Source: a virus (taxonomy: Duplodnaviria > Caudoviricetes). Taken from it: a stretch of DNA of 64,000 bases. Shown here one piece after another: positions 4,296 through 35,557 of this stretch. A program made the translations under genes and the position numbers. The stretch's first letter is position 1; each line of letters opens with the position of its first letter. The stretch lies in IMG/VR virus record IMGVR_UViG_3300011337_000669; one strand, 5' to 3'. Below the pieces are notes generated by a model. The model worked only from the letters and a program-made list of their open reading frames with translations. It searched no databases and was not told where the DNA came from.

Positions 4296-4312
4296 AATTT
4301 ACTTTATTTTAA

Positions 4313-5763: not shown

Positions 5764-6506
5764 AAATTTTCTTTATTATCCATAAAAAATTTTTCGTAAG
5801 GATATAATTGAACATCCTCCAATAATTGATCACATTCTATTTCTTCAGGAAAATAATATATATCCCCATTACATTTATACTTTTGGTTGAAAATATAATC
5901 CCTGTTAAAGAAAGAATATTTACCTATACCACTTTTTATATGTTCATGTCTTATATCTGAAATAATATTTTCAATCCCTCCGGAGTTTAATCTAAAAACT
6001 TTTTTTCCTTTTTGTTTATTTAACCGATACATAATATCCCCATCTTCTTCTCCAAACCCAATTAATCGTTCATCAAAATATCCTAACTCATCAATAAATT
6101 TTTTATTAGCAACAAAAAATGAGAATGTATTGTTAATAGTACTTAATCCAAAATATTCGGGGTTTTTAATGTGGTTAGAGACAATTTCAAACATCTCATC
6201 AGAAGTAACATTGATGTCATCATTTAATATCAATAAATCTTCTTTAGTTGAGTGTATTAATAATGTGTTCCACATTTTAGATAGTCCTCTAGTCTCAACA
6301 AAAAATATTGGAAATACATTTTTATAGTTAAGGCATAATGACAACATTTTTTGTCTGTATTCTTCAGAAAAGTTTGAATCCTTTTCTCCGTTAATACATA
6401 TTAAAATATTGTTATCAACACCTAAAGTTCTAATACTTTTCACTAATGATTCCACAAAATCATATCGTAATGAAAAAGTTGTAATGCCAATATCAAAATT
6501 ATTCAT
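5760..6506 (-). CDS. GT2-family glycosyltransferase
   Basis: LLILNDDI and YFDERLIGFGEEDGD motifs. Confidence 0.75.
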   Translation of the reverse strand: MNNFDIGITTFSLRYDFVESLVKSIRTLGVDNNILICINGEKDSNFSEEYRQKMLSLCLNYKNVFPIFFVETRGLSKMWNTLLIHSTKEDLLILNDDINVTSDEMFEIVSNHIKNPEYFGLSTINNTFSFFVANKKFIDELGYFDERLIGFGEEDGDIMYRLNKQKGKKVFRLNSGGIENIISDIRHEHIKSGIGKYSFFNRDYIFNQKYKCNGDIYYFPEEIECDQLLEDVQLYPYEKFFMDNKENL

Positions 6507-6507
6507 A

Positions 6508-7896
6508 TTATAAATTATTTTTAATTTTTTGATTTATTTGAATTTTAAACTCTTTATACCAATTAAAAACATTAGTATGTAATTTTACATAATCTTCTTC
6601 GTTCATTTTATAATAATTAGTAATTTCATCCCAAGAATTAACTACAGGTAATGGAGAATTTCCCCAAACTTTAGTAAAATATTCTAAGTTATTATAATTT
6701 TTTAAAATTGGTATTGACCCTGATTCTAAACTCTCCATCAATCTAAATGAGTCAGGATGAACCCATCCCATAGGACATGGAACAAATTTTGTTTTATTGT
6801 AAATTGAAATACATTCATCTTGTGTTAAAGATGTTGAACAATTCCAAGAATTTGTTTTATGTATAAAAGTATTTTCCATATTTTCCATTACAGATAGTAA
6901 CTCTTGTCTATCTGATTTTGGTTGTCCAATAAAGGCAAATTCATATTCTTTTGTCTCTAAATAATTTTCATTTTTGTTAACAAACCCTGTTTTTACTCCT
7001 AAAGGAATAAATGTAACATTTTCATGATTAATATTTGAGTCATAATAATTTCTAAATACATGTTTAGCTTTTGAGTAATAATCACAGTTATGACTTAAGT
7101 TCTCATTAGAGAAATGTAATAAATAAAAAGTATAACCGAGTTCGACAAATTTATTTAAATAGTTATTAAAATCATCAGATATGTTATTTGAATTATTGGA
7201 ATAAATTATTACAGAATTATCTAATACTGTTGATAGTTGACCATCGTCAAATATTTTGTTGTGTTCAATATTTTTAAATAAAACTTCTGTGGTATATTCA
7301 AATTCAAAAGTCGTTTGGTCTCCATTAAATGTTTGCCAAATTAAGTTAAGAGGTTTTGTTTGCTTTCTATGAATTAAAAGTTTATTGTTATTATGTAATT
7401 CAAAAGGAATGTTTTTTTCTTTAAACCATTCTATAGTATTTACACAATCATATGCGTGTAAATCCTCAATAATGTATAAACCATTTTCTTTTAACTGAGG
7501 ATATAATGCCTCAAAACTTTTAATATGGTGAAAATGAGTATGAAGTCCATCATCAATGACGATATCATAATCACCTCCATATTCGACAACACATTTGTTT
7601 AAATCCTCAGTTACACTTTGATCGCCAATGAATATTCGAACATTTCCTTTTTCATAATTTTTACAATCTTGGTTTATATCAAAACCAATAAAATCTATGT
7701 TTGAAAAAAACTCAGTCCACATTTGTATTGAAGCTCCAGGAAATCTTGGGTCGGCAATACCTATTTCTAACATTTTAATTTTTTCGTCTTTTAATGGATA
7801 AAATAATTTTTGATATGTTTCGGTATAAGAGTGATATTCAAAATGTTGAGTACCTTTATCAGTACCAAGTCTATTTGCTATTTCTGTTAGTGTCAT
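6508..7896 (-). CDS. Fusion of a class I SAM O-methyltransferase and an exostosin/GT47-like glycosyltransferase
   Basis: N-terminal GTDK, MLEIGI, FIGDQS, DIVIDDGLH, YIIEDLH; C-terminal FIGQ..SDRQ and KFVPCPMG..HPDSFRLMESLESGSIPI. Confidence 0.7.
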   Translation of the reverse strand: MTLTEIANRLGTDKGTQHFEYHSYTETYQKLFYPLKDEKIKMLEIGIADPRFPGASIQMWTEFFSNIDFIGFDINQDCKNYEKGNVRIFIGDQSVTEDLNKCVVEYGGDYDIVIDDGLHTHFHHIKSFEALYPQLKENGLYIIEDLHAYDCVNTIEWFKEKNIPFELHNNNKLLIHRKQTKPLNLIWQTFNGDQTTFEFEYTTEVLFKNIEHNKIFDDGQLSTVLDNSVIIYSNNSNNISDDFNNYLNKFVELGYTFYLLHFSNENLSHNCDYYSKAKHVFRNYYDSNINHENVTFIPLGVKTGFVNKNENYLETKEYEFAFIGQPKSDRQELLSVMENMENTFIHKTNSWNCSTSLTQDECISIYNKTKFVPCPMGWVHPDSFRLMESLESGSIPILKNYNNLEYFTKVWGNSPLPVVNSWDEITNYYKMNEEDYVKLHTNVFNWYKEFKIQINQKIKNNL

Positions 7897-7907
7897 AGAT
7901 TAATGAG

Positions 7908-8513
7908 TTACTTCTTTTTTATTATTGATGTAACACTTTGATTATACTCTGGAGTTTTAGACCATATTCTAATATCGGAGACATTATTTTTTATGTATTC
8001 CTTTTCATCATCTAAGATATGATTGGACGCAATGTTGTTAGTAAATTTAAATGATTGTAACATATCTAAAGTAGTTATTAAATCATCAGGAAAAATAGTT
8101 CCAAAATTTTCTAATCTTGATGTATGTAAGTCTTCTAAAATATAAATTCCACCTTTCTTTAATCTTTTAAATAATATTCCAAACGATACTTGTTGTTGTT
8201 TCATTGTGTGACCACCATCATCAATAATTATGTCAAACTCAACATCAACTTCTTTTAAAAAACCATCTAAAGAGTTTCTATCTTCTTGATTAACAATGTA
8301 TGTTTTAACTCTTTCTTCATCATATTGAGTTTTATCTTCAATGTCAATTCCGTAAATGTTACCATCTTTAAATTTATCTGATAGGTATTTAAGACTTCCA
8401 CCATAATATACTCCAATCTCTAATATATGTTTACTATTACTTAAATCATTAAAATATGGTTCGTAAACATCTATGAATCCATGTTCGTATTTATCCGTAT
8501 TATATTTTTTCAT
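7908..8513 (-). CDS. Class I SAM-dependent (sugar O-)methyltransferase
   Basis: ILEIGVYYGGS, IYGIDI, FDIIIDDGGH, GGIYILEDLHTS. Confidence 0.8.
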   Translation of the reverse strand: MKKYNTDKYEHGFIDVYEPYFNDLSNSKHILEIGVYYGGSLKYLSDKFKDGNIYGIDIEDKTQYDEERVKTYIVNQEDRNSLDGFLKEVDVEFDIIIDDGGHTMKQQQVSFGILFKRLKKGGIYILEDLHTSRLENFGTIFPDDLITTLDMLQSFKFTNNIASNHILDDEKEYIKNNVSDIRIWSKTPEYNQSVTSIIKKK

Positions 8514-8524
8514 ATATTTTTTTT

Positions 8525-9787
8525 TTAACTTGTATGGTTATGAGATAGTTGTCCTGTTATCCTATCGCACCATCCTTTTGATACTGAGTGAGGCCAAACA
8601 ACCCAATGTGTTGGTAGTACTGTTGTAGGAAACTCTCTCCATACTTTACAATACTTATCAGGGTCTCTCATAAATCCATCAATTTCATTTTTGTCTGCGT
8701 CTCTTCGGTAAAGAGTTTCATCATTCGGTCCGTGGAATGCCACAACCCAAAAGTCATAATCGGTTTCAGTAACTTGTGAATATCCAATATCTATACAATG
8801 TTTAAATATTGTTGAGAAGCTATTTTTCCATTCTTCTTCATCTTCAATAACAGGACTTGGTGCGTATTTTTTATCTAAACAATGTTGGTCAACCGCTCTT
8901 TTTTCAAATAACAGTCCAGCATATCTTTCATACTCTCTAAGAGTTCTCACCGTTCCAAATCCGTATGGACCATCATGACCTTCTTGAGTTTCACCATCCA
9001 TACCGAATAGTTTTCTATTTGTTAAGTGAGAGTGTTTATTCTTATCTCCCCAAGCCTTATCATCATCCCATTGCTTAACGCGACCTTTACGAGTATATTC
9101 GTGATAAACAACAGGAATATGTGGGTGAAACAAATCATATCCATAGGTGTATGCTCTTGCTGCGATGGAGATTTCTTCTCCGTGGAAATAGTATTCAGGG
9201 TTGTGTTGTACTTCAGTAGAGAATTGTCCTAGAGTAAAACAGAAGTGAGCGGAATAGAATCTTGCAGTTACAGGTTTTGTCATTTCTCTCCAACCTGGAA
9301 TTGTTTCAGGTAAGAAGAATACTGCTCCTTCAGGGATGAATCTATCGAATGCCATTCTCCAAGCGTCTTGTGCTCTGCCTGCTGGATCATTTTCAGGGTC
9401 AAATGATGGTACATAACCTGTTAATAAAGGTTTCTTATATCCATCCTTTTGTAATCCTTTAATCATCTTAATTAGGACATCATCCCAATCTTTAATAAAC
9501 CTCATGTGAGAATCAATCTGTAAGGTATATTCTTCACCATCATAAAGTTGTTGAGTAAGATTTCTTGCGAAGCAAACACCTTTGGATTCTTGATAGGGGA
9601 TATCTAATATTTTGAATCTTTTATCTTTTCGATAATCTTCTAATTTATCAAAACCATCTTCATCACTAAATTGTCTTGCGATTGAGAATACTAAATTTTT
9701 AGGGTACTTAGCATTTGCCAACATATCTTTAATTGTTGGTTCTAATTGTGGGTCTCTATAAGAGGCTATCTGAATAAAAATTTTCAT
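8525..9787 (-). CDS. GT60-like polypeptide alpha-GlcNAc transferase (Skp1 Gnt1 / trypanosome OGNT family)
   Basis: IFIQIASYRDP start, GVCFARN, LQIDSHMRF..WD (DSH motif), FYSAHFCF, FHGEEI, YHEY. Confidence 0.8.
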   Translation of the reverse strand: MKIFIQIASYRDPQLEPTIKDMLANAKYPKNLVFSIARQFSDEDGFDKLEDYRKDKRFKILDIPYQESKGVCFARNLTQQLYDGEEYTLQIDSHMRFIKDWDDVLIKMIKGLQKDGYKKPLLTGYVPSFDPENDPAGRAQDAWRMAFDRFIPEGAVFFLPETIPGWREMTKPVTARFYSAHFCFTLGQFSTEVQHNPEYYFHGEEISIAARAYTYGYDLFHPHIPVVYHEYTRKGRVKQWDDDKAWGDKNKHSHLTNRKLFGMDGETQEGHDGPYGFGTVRTLREYERYAGLLFEKRAVDQHCLDKKYAPSPVIEDEEEWKNSFSTIFKHCIDIGYSQVTETDYDFWVVAFHGPNDETLYRRDADKNEIDGFMRDPDKYCKVWREFPTTVLPTHWVVWPHSVSKGWCDRITGQLSHNHTS

Positions 9788-9811
9788 TTGATTTATATTT
9801 TATTATAAAAT

Positions 9812-9846
9812 AAAAAACCCTACACGAAGGTGAAGGGTTTTTTTAT
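9812..9846 (-). terminator. Intrinsic terminator separating the Thr/Pro-rich gene cluster from the left glycan operon
   Basis: Imperfect hairpin AAAAAACCCTACAC..GTGAAGGGTTTTTTT flanked by A and T runs. Confidence 0.7.
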
Positions 9847-9862
9847 ATATTTTATTTTATTT

Positions 9863-10921
9863 TTATAGACATCCGTTAGGGTCCGAAGATGTTATCTGCC
9901 CTAAACCACCCGTAACTTGATACCAAGCAGTTCCGTTAGAATAATATCCATCAGGCACTACATCTGTAAGAGGTCTTCCTGTCGCTTCGTATAAGTATTC
10001 ACCTACGTTTGGTCCTACTCCACCTGCGATAGATCCATAAATTGTTTGAGGGGAAGAGCTAAACGCTAAACAAGCGTCGTTAGCCGTAGCACCTGTACCT
10101 AAACTATATGTGTACCAAGCGAAAGTTTGTGTTGGAGTTTGAGTAACTGTTGGTGTTGGAGTCGGTGTTTCAGTATTAGTTGGTGTTTGAGTTGGTGTAG
10201 GTAATGAACTACATGCAGTAAAACTACCTACCGTAGTCCCATCACTATCCAATTCAATTACTGACAATTGGTTACTATAAAAACCTGACATATCACTTAC
10301 AACAACACCTGAAGGGTCATTGTAGAATTGTGTATTGTTATCAAATATAGGAAAGAAACCATATAATTCTGTTTGTACACCGGCTTCACATGCCTCATTC
10401 GAAGTTGCTCCCGATGTCACATTGTAGAAAACTTGTAAAGGTGAGGTTGGAGTTGGTGTTGGTGTTACTGATGGTGTATCTGTTGGTGTTGATGTTACTG
10501 ATGGTGTATCTGTTGGTGTTTGACTTGGTGTATTTGTTGGAGTTTGAGTTGGTGTTTCAGTATTTGTTGGAGTTTGAGTTGGTGTTTCAGTATTTGTTGG
10601 AGTTTGAGTTGGTGTTTGAGTAGGAGTTCCTGTGTTAGTTGCGGTATTAGTTGGTGTTACAGTTGGAGATGGTGTTGGTGAATTGGATGGTGTCGGAGTA
10701 TTTGTTGCCGCAGTTGATGGGAACGTTCCTTCATCAATTAAAGATATTGATGATTTAAACGATGAAGCTACGGTATAGGTACCATCAATTACCCAAATAT
10801 TTTTAGTTTGATTTTGAGATAATTCAACTTGATAATCCCAAAGTGAATCGTCACATCTTCTATAACTGAAGTTTACTATTGTTGAACCCGTGTTCGTGAG
10901 TGTATATTTGCTACATGCCAT
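9863..10921 (-). CDS. Modular Thr/Pro-rich (mucin-like) putative virion protein
   Basis: TPTNT/TPTQT repeats separating three small Cys-containing domains; N-terminal domain nearly identical to that of 11173-15846. Confidence 0.7.
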
Positions 10922-10987
10922 ATTAAATGTTATTTACTAAATAAATACTATGATTTTCTTTAATTTTATAAAATAAAATTAAAATTA

Positions 10988-11147
10988 TTATTTTAAACAA
11001 AAGTGTCTTACGAATGGGGTTGACGAACTCGATGAAACTTCATTAATAATTGTCATTACCTTCTTCTAAGAAATAACTTGAACCTGAATTAACTAAGGTA
11101 TATGTATTTGTAGGAGTCCGAGTTTGTGTTGTTATATGTAAAAGGTC
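10988..11147 (-). pseudogene. Relic of a Thr/Pro-repeat protein C-terminus
   Basis: Start-less frame 11147-11043 reads DLLHITTQTRTPTNTYTLVNSGSSYFLEEGNDNY*; overlapping frame 11056-10988 reads MTIINEVSSSSSTPFVRHFCLK*. Confidence 0.45.
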
Positions 11148-11172
11148 TTATTTTTTTTTATTTATAAAAATA

Positions 11173-14100
11173 TTAATAAAATTCTTCGGTACTGTTTGTA
11201 GTTGAAGGTGTTAACGCACTCCCACCAAAAGCAAGTGCTTCATTTTGTGTTCCTGTTCCTCCTAAACCACATCTTGCATTTATTAAACCACTACATGCGG
11301 ACCATACACTCCCATTATATCCTTGGGTACATTTTACTGACGTGCCAAGGGCTTTTCCACCAAAAGCAAGTGCTGCATTTTGTGTTCCCGCACCTCCCAT
11401 AGCATATACTCCAGTTGATAAAACTCCACATGTGGTCCATGATGTACCATTATATTTTTCAGTAGTTGATAAACTAGGTGATCCACCAAAAGCAAGTGCA
11501 GCATTTTGTGTTCCTGCTCCTCCTAAACAAGATCTTCCAGTTATTAAACCATTACATGAGGACCATGTATTTGTAGAACCATTATATGCTTCGGTACACC
11601 TCAGGTTACTAAGGGGAGTACCACCTAAACCACCAAAAGCAAGTGCGGCATCTTGTGTTCCTGCGCCTGCTAAACCATTTCTTCCAACTATTAAATTTCC
11701 ACCTAAGGACCATGAAGCTCCATCATATTCTTCTGTACATCGTACTGTAGGAGAACCACCAAAAGCAAGTGCGGCATTTTGTGTACCCACACCTGCTAAA
11801 AATTGTCTTCCATTTAATAAATTACCACCTACACACCATATTAAACCATTATATTCTTCAGTAGTTGATAAACTAGGTGATCCACCAAAAGCAAGTGCGG
11901 CATTTTGTGTTCCTGCTCCTGCTAAAAAACGTCTTGAGTTTATTAAAGGTCCACCTGTTCTCCATACTGGTGGAGGTATAGTTGGTGTTTGAGTTGGAGT
12001 TCTTGTGTTAGTAGGCGTTACACTTGTTGTATTAGTTGGAGTTACACTTGCCGTATTAGTTGGTGTTGATGTATTAGTTGGTGTTTGTGTTGCAGTTTCT
12101 GAAGGAGTATTAGTTGGAGTTGATGTATTAGTTGGAGTATTAGTTGGAGTTTTTGTATTGGTTGGTGTCTCAGTATTAGTTGGAGTATTAGTTGGAGTAG
12201 AAGTTTTGGTATTGGTTGGAGTTACTGTTGGAGTTACTGTTGGAGTTACTGTTGGTGTATTAGTATTAGTATTGGTAGGAGTTTGAGTTGGTGTTTGAGT
12301 TGGTGTTGAAGTTTGAGTTGTAGTTTGAGTTGGAGTTGGAGTCGGACATATAACAACACAACTTAGACAATCAGTTTGAGCTGTTAATGGCGAGGTGTAA
12401 GAATATCTGGCATAACTTTCACCTGAGAATGCAACACAAGTTGCACATCCATCAAATCCTGTTGCATTAATATAATAAACAATGCCCTCATTAATTGTTT
12501 GGTCACCAGGAATTCCTTCTAGTAAAAATACTTGATTATCTCTTGATTCACAACAATCCACAAAATACCTAATTAAAGGTTCTGGTGGAGTTTGACTCGG
12601 TGTTGGTGTTTGAGTTTGAGTTGATGTATTAGTTGGCGTTTGAGTTTGAGTTGGAGTCTCTGTATTGGTTGGTGTTACACTTGCAGTATTTGTTGGTGTG
12701 TTTGTAGGAGTTTCTGTATTAGTTGGCGTTTGAGTAGGAGTAGGAGTCTCAGTATTAGTTGGAGTTTGAGTTGGAGTCTCTGTATTGGTTGGTGTTTGAG
12801 TAGGTGTTTCACTGGCGGTTTGAGTAGGAGTTTCACTCGCAGTTTGAGTAGGAGTTTCACTCGCAGTTTGTGTTGGAGTTTCAGTGTTAGTTGGAGTTTG
12901 CGTAGGAGTTTCGCTTGAAGTATTTGTCGGAGTTTCAGTGTTGGTAGGAGTATTAGATGGTGTTTGAGTCGCAGTGTTGGTAGGAGTTTCTGTGTTGGTA
13001 GGCGTATTAGTAGGAGTTTGAGTTGCTGTCTGAGTCGGAGTTTTAGTGTTAGTAGGCGTATTGGTTGGAGTCTCAGTTGCCGTCTGAGTTGGAGTTTCAG
13101 TGTTTGTTGGAGTTACTGTAGGAGTTTGAGTTTGAGTTGAAGTTTGAGTTGGAGTTGGAGTCGGACATATAACAACGCAACTTAGACAATCAGTTTGAGC
13201 AGTTAATGGCGAGGTGTAAGAATATCTGGCGTAACTTGAACCTGAGAATGCGACACAAGTTGCACATCCGTCAAATCCTGTTGCATTAATATAATAAACA
13301 ATACCCTCATTAATTGTTTGGTCACCAGGAATTCCTTCTAGTAAAAATACTTGATTATCTCTTGATTCACAACAATCCACAAAATACCTAATTAAAGGTT
13401 CTGGTGGAGTTTGACTCGGTGTTGGTGTTTGAGTTTGAGTTGATGTATTAGTTGGCGTTTGAGTTTGAGTTGATGTATTAGTTGGTGTTTGAGTTTGAGT
13501 TGGAGTCTCTGTATTGGTTGGTGTTACACTTGCAGTATTTGTTGGTGTGTTTGTAGGAGTTTCTGTATTTGTAGGTGTATTAGTTGGAGTCTCTGTAGGA
13601 GTCTCAGTTGGTGTTGGTGTCGGAGGATAATTTATCTCAACGAATACGTTTATTGGAACACCTGAAACAAAAATACTACTCTGAATTGTTGAAGGGTTTT
13701 CTGCACCAATACCTAATCCGTAATCAAAAAACACTGAAGAATCTCCACTGAAGATTATTGTATTTGCTCCTTGTGTCATTGTTACTGTACCACCATAAAT
13801 TAAAGTATCAAAATAATCAGAATGGTATAAACCCGAGGCATCTGTATTATTAATGTAAGCAATGGACGCCAAACTCCAATCATATGTTACAATTTGTTCA
13901 CCACTTGATTCAAAAGTAAACATTATATTACCTGGGTTATTTGGTTCTTCCGCATTAGATCCATCAGGAAGGAAGAAATAATATTGTCCTGGACCAGCAG
14001 GTGTAAATGTTGGTGTTAGAGTTGAAGTTTGTGTTTGTGTATTAGTTGGTGTTGATGTATTAGTTGGTGTTTGTGTTGCAGTTTCTGAAGGAGTATTAGT

Positions 14101-15846
14101 AGGAGTTACACTTATAGTATTAGTTGGTGTTGATGTATTAGTTGGTGTTTGTGTTGCAGTTTCTGAAGGAGTATTAGTTGGAGTCTCACTAGGAGTATTA
14201 GTCGGAGTTTCCGTATTTGTTGCGGTATTAGTTGGAGTTGACGTTTCAGTATTAGTTGGTGTTTGAGTTGGAGTTGATGTCTCAGTATTAGTTGGTGTTT
14301 GAGTTGGAGTTTCAGTATTAGTTGGTGTAGGCGTTTCTGTGTTAGTAGGAGTAACCGTTGGCGTTTGTGTTTCAGTTTCTGTTGGAGTTACTGTAGATGT
14401 TGGTGTTTCTGTGTTGGTGGGCGTATTAGTAGGAGTCTCTGTTGGGGTAGGTGTTTGAGTTTCTGTTGCGGTAGACGTTAATCCAACAGTAGTCGTAGAA
14501 GTTGGAGTTAATGTTGACGTTGGAGTATTAGTTGGTGTCTCACTAGGAGTATTAGTTGGTGTTTCTGTATTAGTTGGAGTTTGAGTTGGCGTGTTAGTTG
14601 GAGTTTCAGTAGCAGTATTAGTTGGAGTTTCAGTATTAGTTGGTGTTTGTGTTGCAGTCTCTGATGGAGTATTGGTAGGAGTTTCTGAAGGAGTATTTGT
14701 CGGAGTTTCAGTATTAGTTGGAGTATTAGTTGGAGTATTTGTTGGAGTCTCACTAGGAGTATTAGTCGGAGTTTCCGTATTTGTTGCGGTATTAGTTGGA
14801 GTTGACGTTTCAGTATTAGTTGGTGTTTGAGTTGGAGTTGATGTCTCAGTATTAGTTGGTGTTTGAGTTGGAGTTTCAGTGGGTGTTGTAGTTTGAGTTG
14901 GAGTTTCAGTGGGTGTTGTAGTTTGAGTTGGAGTCTCACTACTTGTTGGTGTAGGTGTTTCTGTGTTAGTAGGAGTAACCGTTGGCGTTTGTGTTTCAGT
15001 TTCTGTTGGAGTTACTGTAGATGTTGGCGTTTCTGTGTTGGTGGGAGTATTAGTAGGAGTCTCTGTTGGGGTAGGTGTTTGAGTTTCTGTCGCAGTAGGT
15101 GTTAATCCAACAGTAGTCGTTGAAGTTGGAGTTAATGTTGACGTTGGAGTATTAGTTGGAGTTTGAGTTGGTGTTTCTGTATTAGTTGGAGTTTGAGTTG
15201 GTGTTTCTGTATTAGTTGGAGTTTGAGTTGATGTATTGGTTAAAGTTTGAGTTGATGTATTGGTTGGAGTATTAGTTGGTGTTTGAGTATTAGTAGGAGT
15301 ATTAGTTGGTGTTTGAGTATTAGTTTGCGTAGGAGTTTCAGTATTAGTTGGAGTTTGTGTCGCAGTTTTGCTTGGAGTATTTGTCGGAGTTTCAGTATTA
15401 GTTGGTGTCGGAGTTTCAGTATTGGTTGGAGTATTGGTAGGGGTTTGGGTATTAGTTGGTGTATTCGTTGGTGTCTCAGTATTAGTTGATGTTGGTGTTT
15501 GAGTTGGCGTTTCTGTTGCGGTTGGTGTTAAACCTGTAGTTACAGTCGGAGTTGGTGTATTAGTTGCGGTTATACTTGGTGTTATAGTTGGGGATGGAGT
15601 AGGTGAATTTGATGGAGTAGGTGTGTTTGTCGCCTCAAGTGGTGGAAACGGACCGTTGTCAACAAAAGATATTGATGATTTAAACGATGAAGATACGGTA
15701 TAGGTACCATCAATTACCCAAATATTTTTAGTTTGATTTGGTAGTAATTCAACTTGGTAGTCCCAAACTAAATCATCACATCTTCTATAACTGAAGTTTA
15801 CTATTGTTGATCCCGTATTCGTGAGTGTATATTTACTACATGACAT
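11173..15846 (-). CDS. 1557-aa mucin-like Thr/Pro-repeat protein with a duplicated Cys-rich domain and six C-terminal kelch-like repeats; putative fibre/decoration protein
   Basis: Hundreds of residues of [10 protein letters not shown] repeats; six [20 protein letters not shown]...TEEY repeats at 11173-11964. Confidence 0.8.
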   Translation of the reverse strand: MSCSKYTLTNTGSTIVNFSYRRCDDLVWDYQVELLPNQTKNIWVIDGTYTVSSSFKSSISFVDNGPFPPLEATNTPTPSNSPTPSPTITPSITATNTPTPTVTTGLTPTATETPTQTPTSTNTETPTNTPTNTQTPTNTPTNTETPTPTNTETPTNTPSKTATQTPTNTETPTQTNTQTPTNTPTNTQTPTNTPTNTSTQTLTNTSTQTPTNTETPTQTPTNTETPTQTPTNTPTSTLTPTSTTTVGLTPTATETQTPTPTETPTNTPTNTETPTSTVTPTETETQTPTVTPTNTETPTPTSSETPTQTTTPTETPTQTTTPTETPTQTPTNTETSTPTQTPTNTETSTPTNTATNTETPTNTPSETPTNTPTNTPTNTETPTNTPSETPTNTPSETATQTPTNTETPTNTATETPTNTPTQTPTNTETPTNTPSETPTNTPTSTLTPTSTTTVGLTSTATETQTPTPTETPTNTPTNTETPTSTVTPTETETQTPTVTPTNTETPTPTNTETPTQTPTNTETSTPTQTPTNTETSTPTNTATNTETPTNTPSETPTNTPSETATQTPTNTSTPTNTISVTPTNTPSETATQTPTNTSTPTNTQTQTSTLTPTFTPAGPGQYYFFLPDGSNAEEPNNPGNIMFTFESSGEQIVTYDWSLASIAYINNTDASGLYHSDYFDTLIYGGTVTMTQGANTIIFSGDSSVFFDYGLGIGAENPSTIQSSIFVSGVPINVFVEINYPPTPTPTETPTETPTNTPTNTETPTNTPTNTASVTPTNTETPTQTQTPTNTSTQTQTPTNTSTQTQTPTPSQTPPEPLIRYFVDCCESRDNQVFLLEGIPGDQTINEGIVYYINATGFDGCATCVAFSGSSYARYSYTSPLTAQTDCLSCVVICPTPTPTQTSTQTQTPTVTPTNTETPTQTATETPTNTPTNTKTPTQTATQTPTNTPTNTETPTNTATQTPSNTPTNTETPTNTSSETPTQTPTNTETPTQTASETPTQTASETPTQTASETPTQTPTNTETPTQTPTNTETPTPTQTPTNTETPTNTPTNTASVTPTNTETPTQTQTPTNTSTQTQTPTPSQTPPEPLIRYFVDCCESRDNQVFLLEGIPGDQTINEGIVYYINATGFDGCATCVAFSGESYARYSYTSPLTAQTDCLSCVVICPTPTPTQTTTQTSTPTQTPTQTPTNTNTNTPTVTPTVTPTVTPTNTKTSTPTNTPTNTETPTNTKTPTNTPTNTSTPTNTPSETATQTPTNTSTPTNTASVTPTNTTSVTPTNTRTPTQTPTIPPPVWRTGGPLINSRRFLAGAGTQNAALAFGGSPSLSTTEEYNGLIWCVGGNLLNGRQFLAGVGTQNAALAFGGSPTVRCTEEYDGASWSLGGNLIVGRNGLAGAGTQDAALAFGGLGGTPLSNLRCTEAYNGSTNTWSSCNGLITGRSCLGGAGTQNAALAFGGSPSLSTTEKYNGTSWTTCGVLSTGVYAMGGAGTQNAALAFGGKALGTSVKCTQGYNGSVWSACSGLINARCGLGGTGTQNEALAFGGSALTPSTTNSTEEFY
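12343..13415. repeat. Near-identical direct repeat of a Cys-rich domain (about 12343-12596 and 13162-13415) with flanking Thr/Pro linker
   Basis: PPEPLIRYFVDCCESRD...TDCLSCVVIC occurs twice, with mostly synonymous differences and one S/E change. Confidence 0.9.
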
Positions 15847-15911
15847 CCTAAATGTTGTTTACTTAATAAATACTAAGACTTAATTAAATTAATTAAACAC
15901 ATTTAATTTAT

Positions 15912-16143
15912 TTACAATCCATAAGTTGCTTTTTGAAAATTATGATTATACAATGCTTAAGGTGAGGTTAATGCCACATTATTATATTGCATAGTAATTC
16001 CTAATTTACCAACATAAGGATAGTTTAGTCCTATGTTTAACTCTCTATTATTTGCTTTGTTAATTGGTGTTGTGTATCTACTATTTGATGATGCGAAGAA
16101 TGCTCCGTTTTTATAGTACTTTATAGTTCCGTTTATAAATATA
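15912..16143 (-). pseudogene. Relic C-terminal half of a LamG/ConA-like domain with an in-frame stop
   Basis: Reads IFINGTIKYYKNGAFF...ELNIGLNYPYVGKLGITMQYNNVALTSP*ALYNHNFQKATYGL*, paralleling the LamG ends of 18084-21317 (..[13 protein letters not shown]) and 21901-23865 (..KHNFKILKNRYGL). Confidence 0.7.
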
Positions 16144-18057
16144 TTAAGTGTATTCTTCGGTACAGGATAATGCTGTTGATGCAGGTGATGAAGTAAATCC
16201 TCCAAAAGCAAGTCCGGCTGTTTGTGTTCCTGCACCAGCTAAACTACATCTTGCAGTTATTAAAGCTCCGCCTGCGGTCCATGATGTACCATTATATTCT
16301 TCTGTACATCTTACTACACCAGATATAATCCCACCAAAAGCAAGTCCCTCACTTTGTGTTCCTGCTCCTGCTAAATTATATCTTGCAGTTATTAATGGTC
16401 CACCCGTGATCCATGTTGTACCATCATATTCTTCGGTACATGATAATACAACAGGTGCATTTGTACCACCAAAAGCAAGTGCTGCATTTTGTGTTCCCGA
16501 TCCTGCCAAATGTTGTCTTCTAATTATTAAAGCTCCACCTGCGGCCCATAATGCTCCGTTATATTCTTCGGTACATGTTAATACAACAGGACTAAGAGCA
16601 ATTGATCTACCACCAATAGCAAGTGCGGAATCTTGTGTTCCCGCTCCCGCTAAAAAAGTTCTAGCGTTTATTAACGCGCCGCCTACGGTCCATGATGAAC
16701 CATTATATGCTTCTGTACACGCCAACGGTCCTTCTCCACCAAAAGCGAGTCCAGCATTTTGTGTTCCTGCACCTGCTAAACCATTTCTTCCGGTTATTAA
16801 ATTTCCACCTACGGTCCATAATGCTCCGTTATATTCTTCGGTACATGATAAACAAGCAGTTGTAGTTGTTCTACCACCAAAAGCGAGTCCAGCATTTTGT
16901 GTTCCTGCTCCTGCTAAACTATATCTTGCGGTTATTAATGCTCCACCTGCGGACCATACTCCTGGCGGCATAGTTGGTGTTTGACTTGGGGTCCTTGTTG
17001 GGGTCACTGTTCTCGTTGGGGTCACTTTTGGAGTTGCTGTTATCGTTGGTGTCACTGTTGGTGTTACTGTTGCACTATTCGTAGGAGTTTGAGTAGCTGT
17101 TTCAGTATTTGTTGGTGTTACTGTTGTGGTATTTGTAGGAGTTTGAGTCGGAGTTTCGGTATTAGTAGGAGTTACTGTTGTGGTATTTGTAGGCGTTTGA
17201 GTAGGAGTTTGAGTATTTGTTGGTGTTACTGTTGTGGTATTCGTAGGAGTTTGAGTCGGAGTTTCGGTATTAGTTGGAGTAACTGTTACGGTATTTGTAG
17301 GAGTTTGAGTTGGTGTAATACTTGGAGTAACTATTGGATTAACAGATGGTGTCGGAGTAGGTGTAACGTTAAATGTTGTTCCTGATGACGCTTCAACAGT
17401 AAAACCGTATTCAGTAGTTCCTGACACATTAAATGACACCCCCTCAAATGAACTTTCGTCCGATAAATTATTGTAATCATAATCAACATATACTTGGGAA
17501 TATCCTTTAGTTGCTCCTGATAATAGTTCAACCGAACCGTTAATAACTAATGACGAGCCACTAATAGTATTAAGTATATTAGTAAAATTTACGGTCATAT
17601 CAGTGTCTAAAGGATAGTCCGCAGTTATCGAATACGAAGCATTAACAGAACCAGAATAATATAAACCTTCCAATACGAGATTATTTGATACACCTACCCA
17701 TGAATTCCAAAACCCATTATTAGTTAGCCATGCAGATGACTGATTTCCTGTTGTAAATGTTTGAGGATTACCAAATTCGTTAGATACATATTGAGATAAA
17801 CCAATAAATTCATTTTCATCAAAACTATTAGTTCTGTAAAATCCGACAGATGCCGTAACACCACTAATAGGTGTTGGTTGGGTATTACCACTTACGGGTA
17901 TAGCAATAACATAACCTAATTCTTCGTCAGGTCCTGACCAAAATTGAGGACTACCGGTAAATCCTGATGTTGGCGTTCCAACTGATAAATTTCCTACTTG
18001 TATTGTTCCAGTTATTAAGTCTGAATTATTGTAAGTAAATTGTGTTGATGTTGCCAT
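16144..18057 (-). CDS. Thr/Pro-repeat protein with six C-terminal kelch-like repeats; putative fibre protein
   Basis: TPTNT repeats followed by six GTQ.AGLAFGG..CTEEYNG repeats (16144-16956). Confidence 0.8.
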
Positions 18058-18083
18058 TATTGTTATTTTTTTTTATTAATAAA

Positions 18084-21000
18084 TTATACCCCGTAAAGAT
18101 ATTTGGTGGCCAAATAATTATCCCTAATTTGTGCTGTTGATAGTAATGATTTATAAACAAATACGCTTCCAAATCTACCACTGAAATACTCAGAATTTTG
18201 ACTAAAAAATTCGTCTCTAGTAACTCCAAGAGTAAACGCGGTACCAGAAAGACCTCCGGCATTGGTTATTTCAGGACTAAAAAAACTGTATGTTGAAATT
18301 AAAGTACCGTTCTTATACATAGAAGAGGTATTAATATCCATCGTAATAGTTACCATTTGCCAAGTGTCGGCGCTATATGCAAGAGAGAAGGTTTGGGTGT
18401 TGGACTGACTAGGAGAGCTACTTTGGTATATTGTCTGACCACCATTTGATAGGTAAGTAGTTCTATATTTAAGATATTCATACTTACTCATAATAGTATA
18501 ATTTGCAGAACTGGTATTTGAAGGACGCACCCATGCCATTATCGTCAACGGTACTTCAAAGCTAAAACCATCAGTATAGTTATCTACCTTGAAATATTGA
18601 GTAAACCCATCAAGAGTGAAACCAGAATTTGCAGTGTATGTTGGTCCACCAACTATTGTAGCATTATTACCGTTTCCTGATTGGTCCGCCCACACATTTC
18701 CAACAGGTGCAACCGCACTATTCAAATATAAATCGTAGCCTGGCTCTATCTGAGGTATAATTGTTGGTGTTGGTGTTGATGTTCTGGTAGGTGTTGGAGT
18801 TCGTGTTGCTGTTATGGTAGGTGTTGGAGTTCGTGTTTGAGTTGCCGTTGGGGTTAATCCAACAGTTACTGTTGGAGTTTGGGTTTGAGTTGGTGTATTT
18901 GTTGGAGTTTGTGTTGGAGTTTGTGTTCTTGTGTTAGTCGGAGTAGAAGTTTGTGTTCTTGTGTTAGTTGGAGTGGCAGTATTTGACGCAGTATTTGACG
19001 CAGTATTTGTTGGGGTTTGAGTTGGGGTTTTAGTTTGAGTATTTGTTGGTGTGGAAGTGTTTGATGTTGTATTAGTTGGTGTTTGAGTAGGTGTTTCACT
19101 TGCAGTTTGTGTTGGAGTTACTGTATTAGTTGGTGTTTGAGTTTGAGTTGGAGTCTCAGTATTAGTTGGTGTTACGGTATTAGTTGGAGTTTGAGTAGGT
19201 GTTTCACTTGCAGTTTGTGTTGGAGTTTCAGTTGGAGTAACTGTTGGTGTCTCTGTATTAGTTGGTGTTTGAGTTTGAGTTGGAGTCTCTGTATTAGTTG
19301 GTGTTACGGTATTAGTTGGAGTTTGAGTAGGTGTTTCACTTGCAGTTTGTGTTGGAGTTTCGGTATTAGTTGGTGTCGGAGTTTCAGTATTAGTTGGTGT
19401 CGGAGTTTCGGTATTAGTTGGTGTTACGGTATTTGTTGGAGTCTCTGTGTTAGTTGGTGTTACGGTATTAGTTGGTGTTACGGTATTTGTTGGAGTCTCT
19501 GTATTGGTTGGTGTTTGAGTAGGAGTTTCGCTAGCAGTTTGCGTAGGAGTTTCAGTATTAGTTGGTGTTTGAGTAGGTGTTTCACTTGCAGTTTGTGTCG
19601 GAGTTTCAGTATTAGTTGGTGTCGGAGTTTCAGTATTGGTCGGAGTTGGTGTTTCACTAGCGGTTTGAGTTGGAGTTTCTGTATTAGTTGGAGTTTGAGT
19701 TACAGTATTAGTTGGAGTTTGTGTTGGTGTTTCTGTATTAGTTGAAGTTTGAGTTTGAGTTTGAGTATTAGTTGGAGTTTGAGTTGGAGTTTCTGTATTA
19801 GTTGGAGTATTAGTTGGAGTTTCAGTAGGCGTTGGAGTTTGTGTTTCAGTCGCCGTTGGAGTTAATCCAACAGTTACTGAAGGAGTTGGAGTATTTGTTG
19901 GAGTTTTAGTAGGTGTTGGAGTTTGCGTTTCAGTTGCCGTTGGAGTTAATCCAACAGTTACTGAAGGAGTTGGAGTATTAGTTGGTGTTTGTGTATTAGT
20001 TGGAGTATTAGTTGGTGTTTGAGTATTGGTTGACGTTTGAGTTTGAGTTATAGTATTAGTTGGAGTATTTGTTGGAGTTTCAGTAGGCGTTGGAGTTTGT
20101 GTTTCAGTTGCTGTTGGAGTTAATCCAACAGTTACTGTTGGAGTTTGGGTTTGAGTTGGTGTATTTGTTGGTGTTTGTGTTTGTGTTTCAGTTGCCGTTG
20201 GAGTTAATCCAACAGTTACTGAAGGAGTTGGAGTTTGTGTTGGAGTCTGTGTTGGAGTTGGTGTTGCGTTAAATACAAATTCTGGTGTAAAATCAAATGT
20301 TGTTGTTTCAGAAGTCACATAACTGATATTTGTAAAACTTACGGTTTGATTTAGACTATCATAGTCTCCATTCTCAAAAGTTTGAGTAAATCCTGACAAT
20401 TCACCTGTAGGAATTACTACAGTTATAGGTATTGAAATTGTTCCTCCAGATGTTATGCCTAAAACCGCAGTAAAGCTAGTTGTAAAATCACTATCCATAA
20501 CTCTTTCAGATAATGCTGAGAATCCAGATCCAATAGAACCAGCGAAGAAATATCCTGTTAGGATAATATTATTGTTTCCCGCTGTTGGAGTTTGTGTTGG
20601 AGTTTGTGTTTGAGTTGCTGTATTAGTTGGGGTTTGTGTTTGAGTTGAAGTATTCGTTGGTGTAGGTGTTTGAGTTGGTAATACAGAACATAAACTAAAC
20701 GGACTAGTAACCTGACCATTAAAGTCAATCTCAACTAAAATACCTAAATAATTATAAAATCCCGTAATGTTACCAACATTTCCACCATTTGGCGTATCAA
20801 AGAAATGAGTGTTTTGGTCAAATTCTTGATTCTCACCGTATATAAGTACACTATATTGGTTATCACAGGCGTCGTACTGGCTTAATTCACTATAGAAACA
20901 ACTAAATTCATATAATATAACTCCTGAAGGTGTTACAGTTTGAGTTGGTGTTGCAGTTTGAGTTGGTGTAAGTGTTGGAGATTCGATAGGTGTTTCTGTA

Positions 21001-21317
21001 TTAGTAGGAGTATTGGTTGGAGTCTCCGTAGCAGTGCTAGTTGGAGTTTCAGTAGGTGTTGGTGTTGGAGAGGTTTCAGTAGGTGTTACCGTTGGAGTTG
21101 GTGTCGTAGTAGGTGTGGGACCTAGTACTACAACAGAATACATCGTAGCATAAGTAGGTACATAACAGTTGTAAGTTCCGAAATAATAATCCGAAATATA
21201 ATTAAATGGGAAAGTTTGTACCCCCAAATCTATTGTTCCACCAGATATTGGTAGATACGTTACGTTGGTTGTTAAACCACTCAAATTATCACTTAATATT
21301 CTTACACCTATTGCCAT
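18084..21317 (-). CDS. 1077-aa mucin-like Thr/Pro-repeat protein with a C-terminal LamG/ConA-like domain
   Basis: Long TPT repeat tract; [45 protein letters not shown] are LamG-type motifs. Confidence 0.8.
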
Positions 21318-21347
21318 ATCTATAAATACTCAAAAAAAATTATTCAT

Positions 21348-21911
21348 TTAACATACTCCAACATTTATTATTAATGTACCGCTTAACTGAACAAATTTTG
21401 CTCCGTCTGAAATTGTAAAATTAGCTCCGATTGGTGGGATCGTTAATTCTCTATTACCATAAACATTATCACCAACTTCTAAAATATCAAATGGTTTTGT
21501 TGTAAATATTTTTACATTTGCGGGATTTGCAAACGAATTAACTGATTGACAAACATTTTGATACCATCCACCAGTTCTTAAATTTCTTTCATAAACTGAT
21601 GACGGAGTAACTGATGGTGTCACAGTATTTGTTGGAGTTGGTGTTTGGGTTGTTGGTGTTGCGGATAAACTAACTGATGGAGTTATTGTAGGCGTAACCG
21701 TTGGAGTTGGTGTACTACTTGGACATAGCCCTATATTAGTTATACTTAACGGCCCACTGTAACTTTCTTGTATTAAATCTTCTGCACAAACAAACTCCGT
21801 GTTTAATGGTGTTATGGTTCCAACACTTACAACACTAGTACAACCTGTATATCGATAATATCCATCTTCAACACTATTGTAGTTTATTATTTGGTAATAG
21901 TTACATGCCAT
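21348..21911 (-). CDS. Small Thr/Pro-linker virion-type protein
   Basis: MAC-type N-terminus like its neighbours, TPT linker, Cys-terminated C-terminal domain. Confidence 0.6.
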   Translation of the reverse strand: MACNYYQIINYNSVEDGYYRYTGCTSVVSVGTITPLNTEFVCAEDLIQESYSGPLSITNIGLCPSSTPTPTVTPTITPSVSLSATPTTQTPTPTNTVTPSVTPSSVYERNLRTGGWYQNVCQSVNSFANPANVKIFTTKPFDILEVGDNVYGNRELTIPPIGANFTISDGAKFVQLSGTLIINVGVC

Positions 21912-23865
21912 ATATTAACTCATAAGTCAAATCATTATCAGGTATTAAAACATAATCCAAATCATTATCAGGTATTAATTCATAAGTTAAATCATTACTA
22001 GGTACAACAATCACACAATTAGGACAATCAGGATTCAACAATCCATATCTATTCTTTAGAATCTTAAAGTTGTGTTTTACCTGAGACGCATTCAATGGTT
22101 CAACATACATTCTAAACGCACTGACATCTCCAATCATACTACCACCAAAATATTCTTCTAACTTAATATGTGTGGTTAATCCCGAATATATTGTATTATC
22201 TAAATCATGAGTAGTCAAACACTCAGGGTCTTGTTGATATTCAATTTCATTAATAGTTTCAGGACATCCTCCTGAGAATGTTAAGTTGTCATGAAGACCT
22301 TGAGTACCTCCACCAATTGAAATATTATATCCAACACCAATTTGTTTTTCTTTTTGAACATCTAATAGTCTCGGAATAATCTCTTCAAAATTTTCGGCAA
22401 CCATAAACAACTTACCGTTAACAAATATTTTGAGAGCTCCTAATCTATATTTTTTCTCTTCAGTCCAATTATCATTAAAAGTTACAATTTCGGTTGTTGC
22501 CGGATCATAAGGTAATTCATGAGTCAGTGGAGGTTCAATTAAACTAACACTATTGTTTGCCGGTGTTGCAGTATAAATTGTATCAACAAGAAGACCAAGT
22601 CCTCCCTTTTCATAAAGGTCGCATGTATCCAACCACTGATTTCTTTGGAATACAGCGTCAATTTGAACCCAATGTTCTAAATTAATATACGGAGTATTCT
22701 TACATTCATCAAAAATACCTCTTGTTGAACACCATTCCGTTACGGAGGTTCCTGTCGCATAAGTCAATCCCGTCAAACAAGTACCACTTGTTTCACAACC
22801 TCCAGTTATTCTATATGTCTTGATACAAACTCTTGGGTTACCCGTGTCTCCACTCAATCGTATCGACAATCCATTAGATACACCATCATATAACGGGTCT
22901 TTTTCAGGGTATTGTGCGTTAACCTGGCATTCACAATTACATCCACACGAACAATTTTTTGATGTACCACCTGAAATCTGATATACTTCAAGGCAATCTG
23001 AAGAGGTATTGGCCGAACTAGCACATCCACAAGTATGCATACAAGTCAAACCTGAAGTTACTCTTGTATATCCTGTATCTTGTTTAGGTGACCCATCAGC
23101 ATAATGGTAGAATTTGTTTTCCGCTCTCGACCCCATATAAAAGAACGTACCTTTATTATTAGGGTATCGATTGTTCAGTCCGACACTTGTGTCTCCTGTC
23201 CATCGGTATCTTAACATAAACTCAGCAGTCCATCCTAACGGAACTCTCTGTGGAAAAATTTGGTAATCATATCCAGGTATTTTGTAAAACCCTTGAAAGA
23301 ATCCACCATTTAATCTGGCAAAGTATCCAACATCACCGCCATCAGTTGCATAGTTCAAATCGTAATTGTAAGAATCATCATTCCAAAGTCGATTTTGTGT
23401 GGTAGTAAATCCTGTGATAGGGTGAAGTTTCATTCTCCTATCGTACTTATACCTACTATATTTGTCGGAATTATTTATGTAAAGTCCTGTGGTTATTTGG
23501 ATTGTCTCCCCTGACATTTTTTTAACCAAACCATTATCAATACCTGTTAAACCAACATCACAAAGGTCAGTTACTTTAGGACAAAAGTTAGGGTCAATGT
23601 CATCTGGATTCCAATAATTTTCAGAAACAATAACATCATTATCAAAAGTACAAGAACCTGATTGGCATATCGTTGTTCCTGTACTATTGAAATCAAATCT
23701 GAATGGCATTCTATTTCCATCGACTTCACCTATTAATAATGGTGAAAAAATTACCTCTTGGTCATAGTCCTTCTCGTCTGAAGCCAAACAGATATCGGTA
23801 ATTTCATTGACGGGTTTAATACCCCAACGCCTAAAATTATACTGATTAATATTTTGATATGCCAT
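21901..23865 (-). CDS. Large putative structural protein with LamG-like elements
   Basis: GWTAEFML, KIFVNGKL, FGGSMIGDVSAFRMY..PLNASQVKHNF; Cys-rich; preceded by the TATTTAT motif. Confidence 0.55.
   Translation of the reverse strand: MAYQNINQYNFRRWGIKPVNEITDICLASDEKDYDQEVIFSPLLIGEVDGNRMPFRFDFNSTGTTICQSGSCTFDNDVIVSENYWNPDDIDPNFCPKVTDLCDVGLTGIDNGLVKKMSGETIQITTGLYINNSDKYSRYKYDRRMKLHPITGFTTTQNRLWNDDSYNYDLNYATDGGDVGYFARLNGGFFQGFYKIPGYDYQIFPQRVPLGWTAEFMLRYRWTGDTSVGLNNRYPNNKGTFFYMGSRAENKFYHYADGSPKQDTGYTRVTSGLTCMHTCGCASSANTSSDCLEVYQISGGTSKNCSCGCNCECQVNAQYPEKDPLYDGVSNGLSIRLSGDTGNPRVCIKTYRITGGCETSGTCLTGLTYATGTSVTEWCSTRGIFDECKNTPYINLEHWVQIDAVFQRNQWLDTCDLYEKGGLGLLVDTIYTATPANNSVSLIEPPLTHELPYDPATTEIVTFNDNWTEEKKYRLGALKIFVNGKLFMVAENFEEIIPRLLDVQKEKQIGVGYNISIGGGTQGLHDNLTFSGGCPETINEIEYQQDPECLTTHDLDNTIYSGLTTHIKLEEYFGGSMIGDVSAFRMYVEPLNASQVKHNFKILKNRYGLLNPDCPNCVIVVPSNDLTYELIPDNDLDYVLIPDNDLTYELIYGM
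21905..21995. repeat. Three imperfect 30-bp tandem repeats encoding (P.NDL.Y.LI)x3
   Basis: cataagtcaaatcattatcaggtattaa-type unit repeated three times. Confidence 0.85.
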
Positions 23866-30936: not shown

Positions 30937-30973
30937 TGGATAGAATTATTGATTTGAAAGAAAACGAAATTAT

Positions 30974-35548: not shown

Positions 35549-35557
35549 ATATAGATA

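Follow-up and report, generated by a model that had tools for sequence, protein, structure and literature searches.

The closest described relatives of the system reported here are the protist glycosyltransferases of family GT60 (PF11397) and the mucin-type glycosyltransferases of family GT27. The GT60 enzyme of Trypanosoma cruzi, TcOGNT1, forms GlcNAc-alpha-1-O-Thr on mucins (GlcNAc, N-acetylglucosamine; PMC9472816), and Gnt1 of Dictyostelium acts in the cytoplasm on hydroxyproline (Hyp) of the protein Skp1. Enzymes of GT27, which are anchored in the Golgi as type-II membrane proteins, use UDP-GalNAc (uridine diphosphate N-acetylgalactosamine) and densely glycosylate Thr/Pro-rich tandem repeats. 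Here, we describe a GT60 gene (8525-9787, minus strand) and an adjoining block of five genes for proteins with tracts of threonine and proline (9863-21911, minus strand; Thr/Pro or TP tracts hereafter). They lie in a 64-kb stretch of DNA, referred to as the window, from the IMG/VR record IMGVR_UViG_3300011337_000669 of a tailed phage (Caudoviricetes). From the gene content and its comparison with other genomes, we consider it probable that this GT60 would start O-glycans in the cytoplasm on the Thr/Pro tracts of the phage's own proteins, and that a conserved core of glycan genes together with a variable cassette would extend them. To our knowledge, only few cases of phage-encoded protein glycosylation are known, none of them with a mucin-type initiator.

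A comparable logic is realized in the serine-rich-repeat adhesins of Gram-positive bacteria. In these, GtfA and GtfB start GlcNAc in the cytoplasm on long Ser/Thr repeats, and strain-variable transferases extend the glycan before export or assembly, as is proposed here for the phage. The initiator of the adhesin system is a GT4 (GT-B) pair, and its Ser-rich substrates are exported by the accessory Sec system; the window, in contrast, holds a GT60 and Thr/Pro tracts that carry no export signal. Mycobacteriophages, chloroviruses (Vp54), and mimivirus (fibrils) likewise bring transferases, and sometimes sugar-nucleotide enzymes, for their own structural proteins, which are modified in the cytoplasm or the viral factory; for mycobacteriophage virions, this is the work of Freeman et al. 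2023, as cited in a passage of PMC12619734. These systems differ from ours in using other glycosyltransferase families and in their acceptors, namely capsid or tail-tube C-termini, atypical N-glycans, and fibril proteins, and none of them has been described with GT60 or with mucin-like Thr/Pro tandem repeats. A description of aquatic jumbo phages treats core glycosyltransferases in general terms only (PMC12619734), and a literature search for GT60, PF11397, or mucin-like in combination with phage returned no description of the GT60-Thr/Pro pairing. Virus-encoded glycosylation itself is known, and it is this pairing, as a variant of it, that is new here.

The gene at 8525-9787 encodes a protein of 420 amino acids (aa) and is a true member of the GT60 family, fold and metal site included. 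A first-pass annotation of the window had assigned the family from the motifs IASYRD, QIDSH, and HGEE (residues 7-12, 90-94, and 202-205, respectively), and a search with hidden Markov models confirmed it. The match to PF11397 ('GlcNAc') had an E value of 3.7e-64 and scored 217.9 bits, above the curated cut-off of 21, and phrog_24687 was matched with an E value of 1.8e-162. While a single-sequence AlphaFold model was unusable (pLDDT, the predicted local distance difference test, of 34), the model built instead from an alignment of 52 homologues with 35-92% identity reached a pLDDT of 95 and a predicted template-modeling (TM) score, pTM, of 0.91. Its top Swiss-Prot fold match in Foldseek was Dictyostelium Gnt1 (Q8T1C6; E 7.6e-24, TM 0.64, residues 2-324) with 21% identity in the structural alignment, and all remaining Swiss-Prot matches were polypeptide GalNAc-transferases. 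In the PDB, where a sequence search gave no match, the first 35 fold matches were mucin-type GalNAc-transferases, led by GalNAc-T4, GalNAc-T2, and GalNAc-T10, so that GT27 provides the closest solved structures (E 6e-10 to 1e-8).

Among the 52 homologues, H229, E204, and E205 do not vary, and conservation is 90% or higher at D92, S93, and H94. We take D92/S93/H94 and H229 to be a metal site of the DxH plus distal-His type, as in GT27 and GT60. Family PF11397, the GT-A fold, and this site are shared with Gnt1 and TcOGNT1. The GT-A catalytic domain (residues 2-324) is followed by a beta-rich C-terminal domain (approximately residues 325-415), which has no counterpart in Gnt1 and is kept across all phage clades, with matches reaching residue ~411. 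The retaining GT-A fold with DxH and the succession of catalytic and C-terminal accessory domain are also found in GT27; however, GT27 is another CAZy family, and the window enzyme had no Pfam match to GT27 or to the ricin-type lectin domain. From the protist GT60 enzymes it is set apart by this additional domain of about 90 residues, by its HtrL/YibB-like partner (see below), and by being phage-borne in a family that is also bacterial. A signal peptide, a membrane anchor, or an N-terminal hydrophobic segment was not found in the GT60. Since signal peptide and anchor are lacking, as in the cytoplasmic Gnt1, the enzyme should work in the cytoplasm. A predicted complex of the GT60 with a 41-residue tract and Mn scored 0.00 with controls not run, and is evidence in neither direction. 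The family is large: PF11397 comprises 4,505 clusters at 50% identity (E ≤ 1e-3), and at least 6,999 GT60 proteins (E ≤ 1e-5) were present among the 8,000 candidates examined from the 90% collection. Many of the homologues are giant proteins with two to four GT60 domains, for example P0126 (2461 aa), P0127, and P0128.

The candidate acceptors begin 75 nucleotides (nt) from the GT60 gene. This spacing, the five-gene block of 12 kb, and the hundreds of Thr residues had been pointed out in the first-pass annotation, and all three were found in place. The five tract genes span 12,049 nt (9863-21911), and their products contain, in gene order from 9863, 76, 500, 123, 336, and 27 Thr residues (1,062 in total). 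Single tract proteins reach 32% Thr and 13% Pro, and the longest tracts extend over up to 535 residues with at least 50% Thr plus Pro. All 86 matches to a TPTxTPT codon pattern in the window are located within 10149-21707 on the minus strand, at a chance expectation of 0 (100 shuffles), and Tandem Repeats Finder reported dozens of degenerate 24-132-nt arrays in the tract region. The block thus offers dense Thr/Pro tandem repeats as candidate acceptors, as in mucin-type systems, and these are Thr-rich and mucin-like as are the acceptors of TcOGNT1. The dense glycosylation of such repeats, a feature of GT27, is for the window a prediction from the genes.

The description of all five genes as largely repeat applies to the 1557- and 1077-aa proteins, whereas the other three consist mainly of globular domains with shorter tracts. 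The 352-aa protein (9863-10921; tracts at residues 76-160 and 241-267) shares an N-terminal domain of 75 aa with the giant 1557-aa protein (11173-15846; 500 Thr and 199 Pro; phrog_15511). The latter is arranged like beads on a string and contains a Cys-rich domain in two copies; its C-terminus shows, as judged by eye, the same Kelch-like propeller repeat as the 637-aa protein (16144-18057; phrog_27227, E 3e-52). In the 637-aa protein, a globular N-domain, for which a search of the protein atlas gave nothing usable, precedes the tract (residues 238-358) and a six-blade Kelch-like propeller (residues 359-637), which matched the PDB entry 9tsn 'Kelch protein' (E 1.5e-8) and also KLHL20 and KLHL2. 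The second giant, of 1077 aa (18084-21317; 336 Thr, tract 348-851), ends in a concanavalin-A (ConA)-like LamG_3 domain (PF13385, E 1.5e-13), and its C-terminal third weakly matched phrog_8510 'virion structural protein' (E 2.6e-11). A small Thr/Pro-linker protein of 187 aa (21348-21911; phrog_15511, E 4.8e-8) completes the five. Signal peptides or N-terminal hydrophobic segments were not found in the tract proteins.

Both the enzyme and the tracts bear on the residue that would be modified. The top fold match, Gnt1, is Hyp-specific, and the tracts contain 11-13% Pro; the acceptor could therefore be hydroxyproline, as in Skp1 or plant extensins, with a 2-oxoglutarate (2OG)-Fe(II) prolyl hydroxylase acting first and GT60 adding GlcNAc afterwards. 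Two complete relatives, G004 and G005, each encode three PF13640 2OG-Fe(II) oxygenases, but these are located 40-230 kb from GT60. No 2OG oxygenase was found among the open reading frames (ORFs) scanned in the window, and PF13640 was also absent from G008, Xoo-sp13, and XacN1, all of which have GT60 and tracts, so that the idea of a prolyl hydroxylase as an obligatory partner of GT60 was not supported. The Thr:Pro ratio is approximately 2.5:1, with Thr as the constant residue of the repeats. Because the oxygenases are patchy and distant from GT60, Thr is the likelier acceptor; we regard modification of hydroxyproline in this phage as quite improbable, and such a route is unlikely to be general.

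The pairing of GT60 with Thr/Pro tracts recurs well beyond the window. In the 80 close IMG/VR loci, a TP-rich ORF directly precedes GT60 wherever more than approximately 0.8 kb of upstream sequence is present, which on account of synteny is weak evidence when taken by itself. Clustering of the GT60 from 152 loci at 80% identity gave 26 clusters, and in 17 of them a TP-rich ORF lies within 10 kb of GT60, be it upstream, downstream, or on the other strand. Genome-wide counts bore out the co-occurrence across large phages: the complete GT60-positive genomes have between 22 and 74 TPTxTPT sites (G004 36, G005 74, Xoo-sp13 51, XacN1 51, and RAS14 22), whereas the count is 0 in each GT60-negative large relative (the Xanthomonas phage XaC1, SCTP-2, immuto, Mel-JY01, and LR756508). 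The presence or absence of PF11397 in the compared genomes was checked with positive controls, and the five GT60-positive genomes represent two unrelated lineages, G004 and G005 being freshwater phages. Among 48 arbitrary viral contigs that were chosen only for (TPTx)2TPT, 17 carry PF11397.

Further carriers of GT60 are the Xanthomonas jumbo phages XacN1 and Xoo-sp13, both in culture, and the Stenotrophomonas phages CM1 and RAS14. They have an orthologous GT60 (42-47% identity over 97-99%), the HtrL-like partner (40% identity), and many Thr/Pro-tract proteins. In Xoo-sp13, one of these, of 996 aa and with a content of 29% Thr and 15% Pro, is annotated 'mucin-16-like', and another, of 3,245 aa, is baseplate-adjacent, has PT linkers, and is encoded 9 kb from GT60. 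In contrast to the window, their hosts are gamma-proteobacterial, their cassette has a carbamoyltransferase in place of the GT10, GT7, and methyltransferase genes, and their tract genes are scattered over the genome, the nearest being ~9 kb from GT60. Virions of XacN1 gave at least two periodic-acid-Schiff-positive bands, which were ascribed to the phage's two glycosyltransferases (Yoshikawa et al., PMC5852040); one of these two, ORF334, is the GT60 orthologue (45% identity). A second kind of hydroxyl-rich repeat protein was seen in clade-2 loci (L108, L110, L117, and others), where giant ORFs built from (S/T)G(S/T)SGSSG repeats and as long as 1,530 aa stand among the Thr/Pro genes beside GT60 (for example L117:3200-7309).

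Bacteria show the pairing as well: 27 of 80 bacterial loci with GT60, spread over many phyla, have a TP-rich ORF within 10 kb. This ORF is the VgrG of a type VI secretion system (T6SS) with a (PT)n tail in Ralstonia, Paraburkholderia, Achromobacter, and Paraherbaspirillum. For five Burkholderiales genomes (4.7-7.9 Mb), the PT-tailed VgrG lies ~4-5 kb from GT60, and every or almost every (PT)5 match listed (8 matches are outside the list) falls at this VgrG-GT60 locus, with one small second site in Ralstonia. As the PT tracts found in these Burkholderiales are confined, or nearly so, to the VgrG that neighbors GT60, the pairing cannot be put down to synteny within a phage lineage.

On its other side, GT60 is the first of ten genes on the same strand (95-9787, minus strand). 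To this extent, its placement at the head of a left glycan operon in the first-pass annotation was correct, but the repeat genes are separated from it by a terminator (see below). When each protein of this left block was searched against all GT60 loci, two classes of genes became apparent. The first class accompanies GT60 closely. An HtrL/YibB-like two-domain protein of 558 aa (95-1771; PF09612, E 8.7e-23; TIGR02192), the C-terminal half of which is GT-A-like by eye only (DNSSD and EDD motifs), was found in 79 of 80 close loci, 56 of 70 clade-2 loci, and all three Xanthomonas/Stenotrophomonas loci, and furthermore in a TARA marine contig and in 33 of 80 bacterial GT60 loci, where the HtrL-like gene often directly adjoins GT60. 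With Xoo-sp13_300, from the GT60 operon of Xoo-sp13, it shares 40% identity along the entire protein. The third core member, a conserved 307-aa protein without a credible Pfam match (1764-2687), has homologues at 75 of 80 close, 20 of 70 clade-2, and 3 of 3 Xanthomonas/Stenotrophomonas loci.

The second class comprises the seven genes in between (2642-8513), each of which occurs in only two to four of the 80 close relatives. By Pfam, these are a GT7C-like gene (2642-3367), a GT10 fucosyltransferase-like gene (3360-4295), a GT2-like gene (5760-6506), an RXYLT1_C-like gene (6508-7896), and an S-adenosylmethionine (SAM) methyltransferase gene (7908-8513); two further genes (4313-4912 and 4909-5763) are of no assigned family and are counted here by their position in the cassette. 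The gap between GT60 and the HtrL-like gene amounts to 6.75 kb in the window, whereas most relatives have ~1.6 kb and some reach 5.9 kb; between phages whose GT60 are 82-92% identical, the segment 1771-8525 is hypervariable. The locus consequently combines a conserved module of initiator and core with an inserted hypervariable part, similar to serotype cassettes. On the TARA marine contig (296-5864), two tandem GT60 are followed by an FkbM methyltransferase, a weak sulfotransferase match, and the HtrL-like gene; this variant of the cassette may yield sulfated glycans.

HtrL/YibB, GT25, GT10, and GT11 are families typical of lipopolysaccharide (LPS) loci. This is in line with an alternative in which the glycan genes act elsewhere, be it on host LPS, capsule, or S-layer, on the capsid, or on a free oligosaccharide, with the tracts as flexible spacers and the synteny simply inherited; for the host-envelope version, the purpose would be superinfection exclusion or receptor masking. 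PT linkers are indeed common as unglycosylated spacers, complete phages hold them without GT60, some GT60 clusters are without a nearby TP gene, and the terminator mentioned above stands between the tract genes and the glycan genes. On the other hand, the scan of the window ORFs revealed no flippase, polymerase, or priming transferase for a lipid carrier, which favors a direct, non-lipid acceptor, and the characterized GT60 enzymes cited (PMC9472816; Gnt1) use polypeptide acceptors. Moreover, such an alternative would have to accommodate both the recurrence of the pairing in unrelated phages with different gene orders and the PT tracts of the Burkholderiales. Taken together, we judge another acceptor to be unlikely, although it is the most serious of the alternatives to glycosylation of the tracts.

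The upstream regions link the tract genes to the structural genes of the phage. The word TATTTAT is found 4-29 nt upstream of the start in 13 of 61 genes, compared to ~0.9 that its frequency across the whole window would predict, and of the four most frequent 7-mers in the upstream regions it alone is not poly-A. Examples of starts that bear it are 10921, 15846, 21317, 23865, 58946, 60002, 61454, and 63317 on the minus strand and 23918, 45444, and 49674 on the plus strand. The carriers are four genes of the leftward block, among them those of the 352- and 1077-aa tract proteins, as well as the portal, the prohead protease, other head-module genes, and a few others, and no gene of either glycan block has the word upstream. 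In its extended form, (A/G)TATTTAT, it could serve this phage lineage as a late promoter or as a translation signal. For this role, the T4 late-promoter consensus TATAAATA was rejected, with 12 matches versus 11 expected and no orientation before genes. Since TATTTAT is common to both sets of genes, it suggests that the tract proteins may be expressed together with the structural genes.

The 75 nt between the last Thr/Pro gene and GT60 (9788-9862, minus strand) form a terminator-like hairpin followed by a U-run. It was missed by a simple terminator scan and confirmed by RNA folding, with a minimum free energy of -16.1 kcal/mol and a z-score of -5.13, and none of 200 shuffles folded as well.

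The leftward block is opened by a Cys-rich protein of 654 aa without a repeat tract (21901-23865, minus strand), whose gene has TATTTAT 9 nt upstream of its ATG. Its neighbors by language-model features are viral LamG_3 clusters (score 0.94-0.97), and on this lead from the language model it is probably ConA/LamG-like. At its C-terminal end, three DNDLTYELIP-type units are encoded by a 30-nt tandem repeat of 2.8 copies (21913-21997), and the tail of the gene overlaps the start of the next one by 11 nt.

Several observations weigh against glycosylation of the phage's own tracts. The proposed glycosylation of the tracts by GT60 is partly supported, and by comparative genomics only; the Schiff-positive bands of XacN1 were not assigned to particular proteins (PMC5852040). 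The virion location draws on the shared upstream motif and one weak PHROG match, and neither the Kelch domain nor the 654-aa protein had a tblastn match in cultured phages. Because of the terminator-like hairpin, the GT60 block appears to be a separate transcription unit, with which the tract genes are not co-transcribed. Nine of the 26 GT60 clusters are without a TP ORF within 10 kb, and the co-occurrence in phages stems largely from a few abundant lineages, so that the counts are not independent. Out of nine TP-repeat contigs that are at least 90% complete, six are without GT60 and only three carry PF11397; as complete phage genomes hold tracts without GT60, TP tracts can function unglycosylated and do not require it. 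Finally, a cluster of 15 loci has a GT60+GT25 operon, and two of its partial contigs (131 and 181 kb) contain neither a TP nor an [ST]P tract. This exception is weakened by a 234-kb member of the same cluster, which does have tracts at a distance of 80-130 kb from GT60.

With these points in mind, the O-glycan system on the phage's own fibers that had been put forward in the first-pass annotation stands with respect to the GT60-tract pairing, which recurs in phages and bacteria. The glycan and its donor, the acceptor, the downstream extension, late expression, and the location on fibers or the virion are what we infer from the arrangement of the genes. In the proposed process, a cytoplasmic GT60 would transfer the first sugar from a UDP-sugar to Thr, perhaps also Ser, in the tracts of late proteins, and by family precedent this first sugar would be alpha-GlcNAc. 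The HtrL/YibB-like protein (95-1771) and the 307-aa protein (1764-2687) would then add a conserved core, and the seven cassette genes would add lineage-specific sugars and methyl groups. Densely O-glycosylated, extended stalks with distal Kelch or ConA-like binding domains would be the product, and the virion the most likely place of their display.

Nucleotide sugars and further transferases may be supplied by a second glycan block on the opposite strand (26776-45424, plus strand). Given by their starts, it contains a PHROG-assigned glycosyltransferase (26776), a GT2_5+GT4 fusion (29311), a nucleotide-sugar dehydrogenase (30974), two GT2 genes (32131 and 43872), a GT11 (32856), a GT10 (33653), two FkbM methyltransferases (36442 and 37966), and a GDP-fucose-synthase-like short-chain dehydrogenase/reductase (SDR; 40104). 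PhoH, dUTPase/dCTP-deaminase-like, and PolB-exonuclease-like genes are interleaved with these (41205-41939 and 28697-29314, plus strand). The presence of the dUTPase/dCTP-deaminase-like gene in this right-hand block would also suit a hypermodification of the phage DNA, in which the transferases would build glycans onto hydroxymethylated bases, as T4 and other phages do, with no relation to the Thr/Pro proteins. T4-like phages do glycosylate their DNA, and the phage glycosyltransferases for DNA glycans are diverse, as cited in a passage of PMC12619734. Neither a match to the T4 alpha- or beta-glucosyltransferase families nor a base hydroxymethylase was found in the window, however, and both the GT60 beside the PT-tailed VgrG and the genome-wide link to TP tracts would be left unexplained. 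We also know of no GT60 or GT27 enzyme that acts on DNA, and hold this explanation to be extremely improbable.

If GT60 does act on the Thr/Pro tracts, mucin-like, sugar-coated appendages would be built by freshwater jumbo phages of a very abundant group, and the GT60 family, known from protists, would have an extensive reservoir in prokaryotes and viruses. In phage and T6SS proteins, the ubiquitous 'PT linkers' may then often be glycosylated rather than bare spacers, with effects on protease resistance, stiffness, adhesion, receptor recognition, and the behavior of such proteins in recombinant expression. A further generalization, to which we give about the same weight as to its opposite, is that GT60 and the HtrL/YibB-like protein would form a widespread, so far undescribed prokaryotic and phage module for the cytoplasmic mucin-type O-glycosylation of Pro/Thr stalks that are exposed later, with the cassettes of jumbo phages creating virion 'glyco-types' in the manner of O-antigen serotypes. 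The targets of such a module, for which the balance is just as even, would be phage fibers, baseplate proteins, and the VgrG spikes of T6SS, all of which are built in the cytoplasm and end up exposed on the outside of the cell.

With regard to the phage itself, all ORFs between 95 and 23865 are on the minus strand, the GC content of the window is ~0.25-0.40, and no tRNA genes were found in it. A gp23-type major capsid gene (55585-57375, minus strand; PF07068, E 3.1e-72), a gp20-type portal gene (61476-63317; phrog_213, E 4.9e-66), and a gp21-type prohead protease gene (59286-60002; phrog_207, E 4.7e-43) identify a T4-like (gp23-type) tailed phage. A search for cultured phages nearly identical in the head region gave no match, and the close relatives in IMG/VR have complete genomes of 321-326 kb, with terminal repeats in some of them. 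We therefore assign the window to an uncultured T4-like jumbo phage, whose size of ~320 kb is judged from these complete relatives. The nearest 'bacterial' GT60 copies (67-69% identity) are on contigs of metagenome-assembled genomes (MAGs) of Saprospiraceae or Bacteroidia with a phage-like GC content of 0.34-0.50, one of them 230 kb long, and these contigs are probably phage DNA that was mis-binned with its host. As the closest MAG-binned GT60 contigs carry these labels, the host of the phage probably belongs to the Bacteroidota.

Two minor observations concern the head-gene region. The major capsid protein has 596 aa, and the gp23 profile matched best over residues 324-581, in two stretches; tblastn coverage was ~56%, likewise in two pieces. 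It seems to possess an additional domain, a few hundred residues long, that is either N-terminal or inserted. In the same region, a small gene on the plus strand (53070-53528) encodes a CAP / cysteine-rich secretory protein domain (PF00188, E 4.6e-7).

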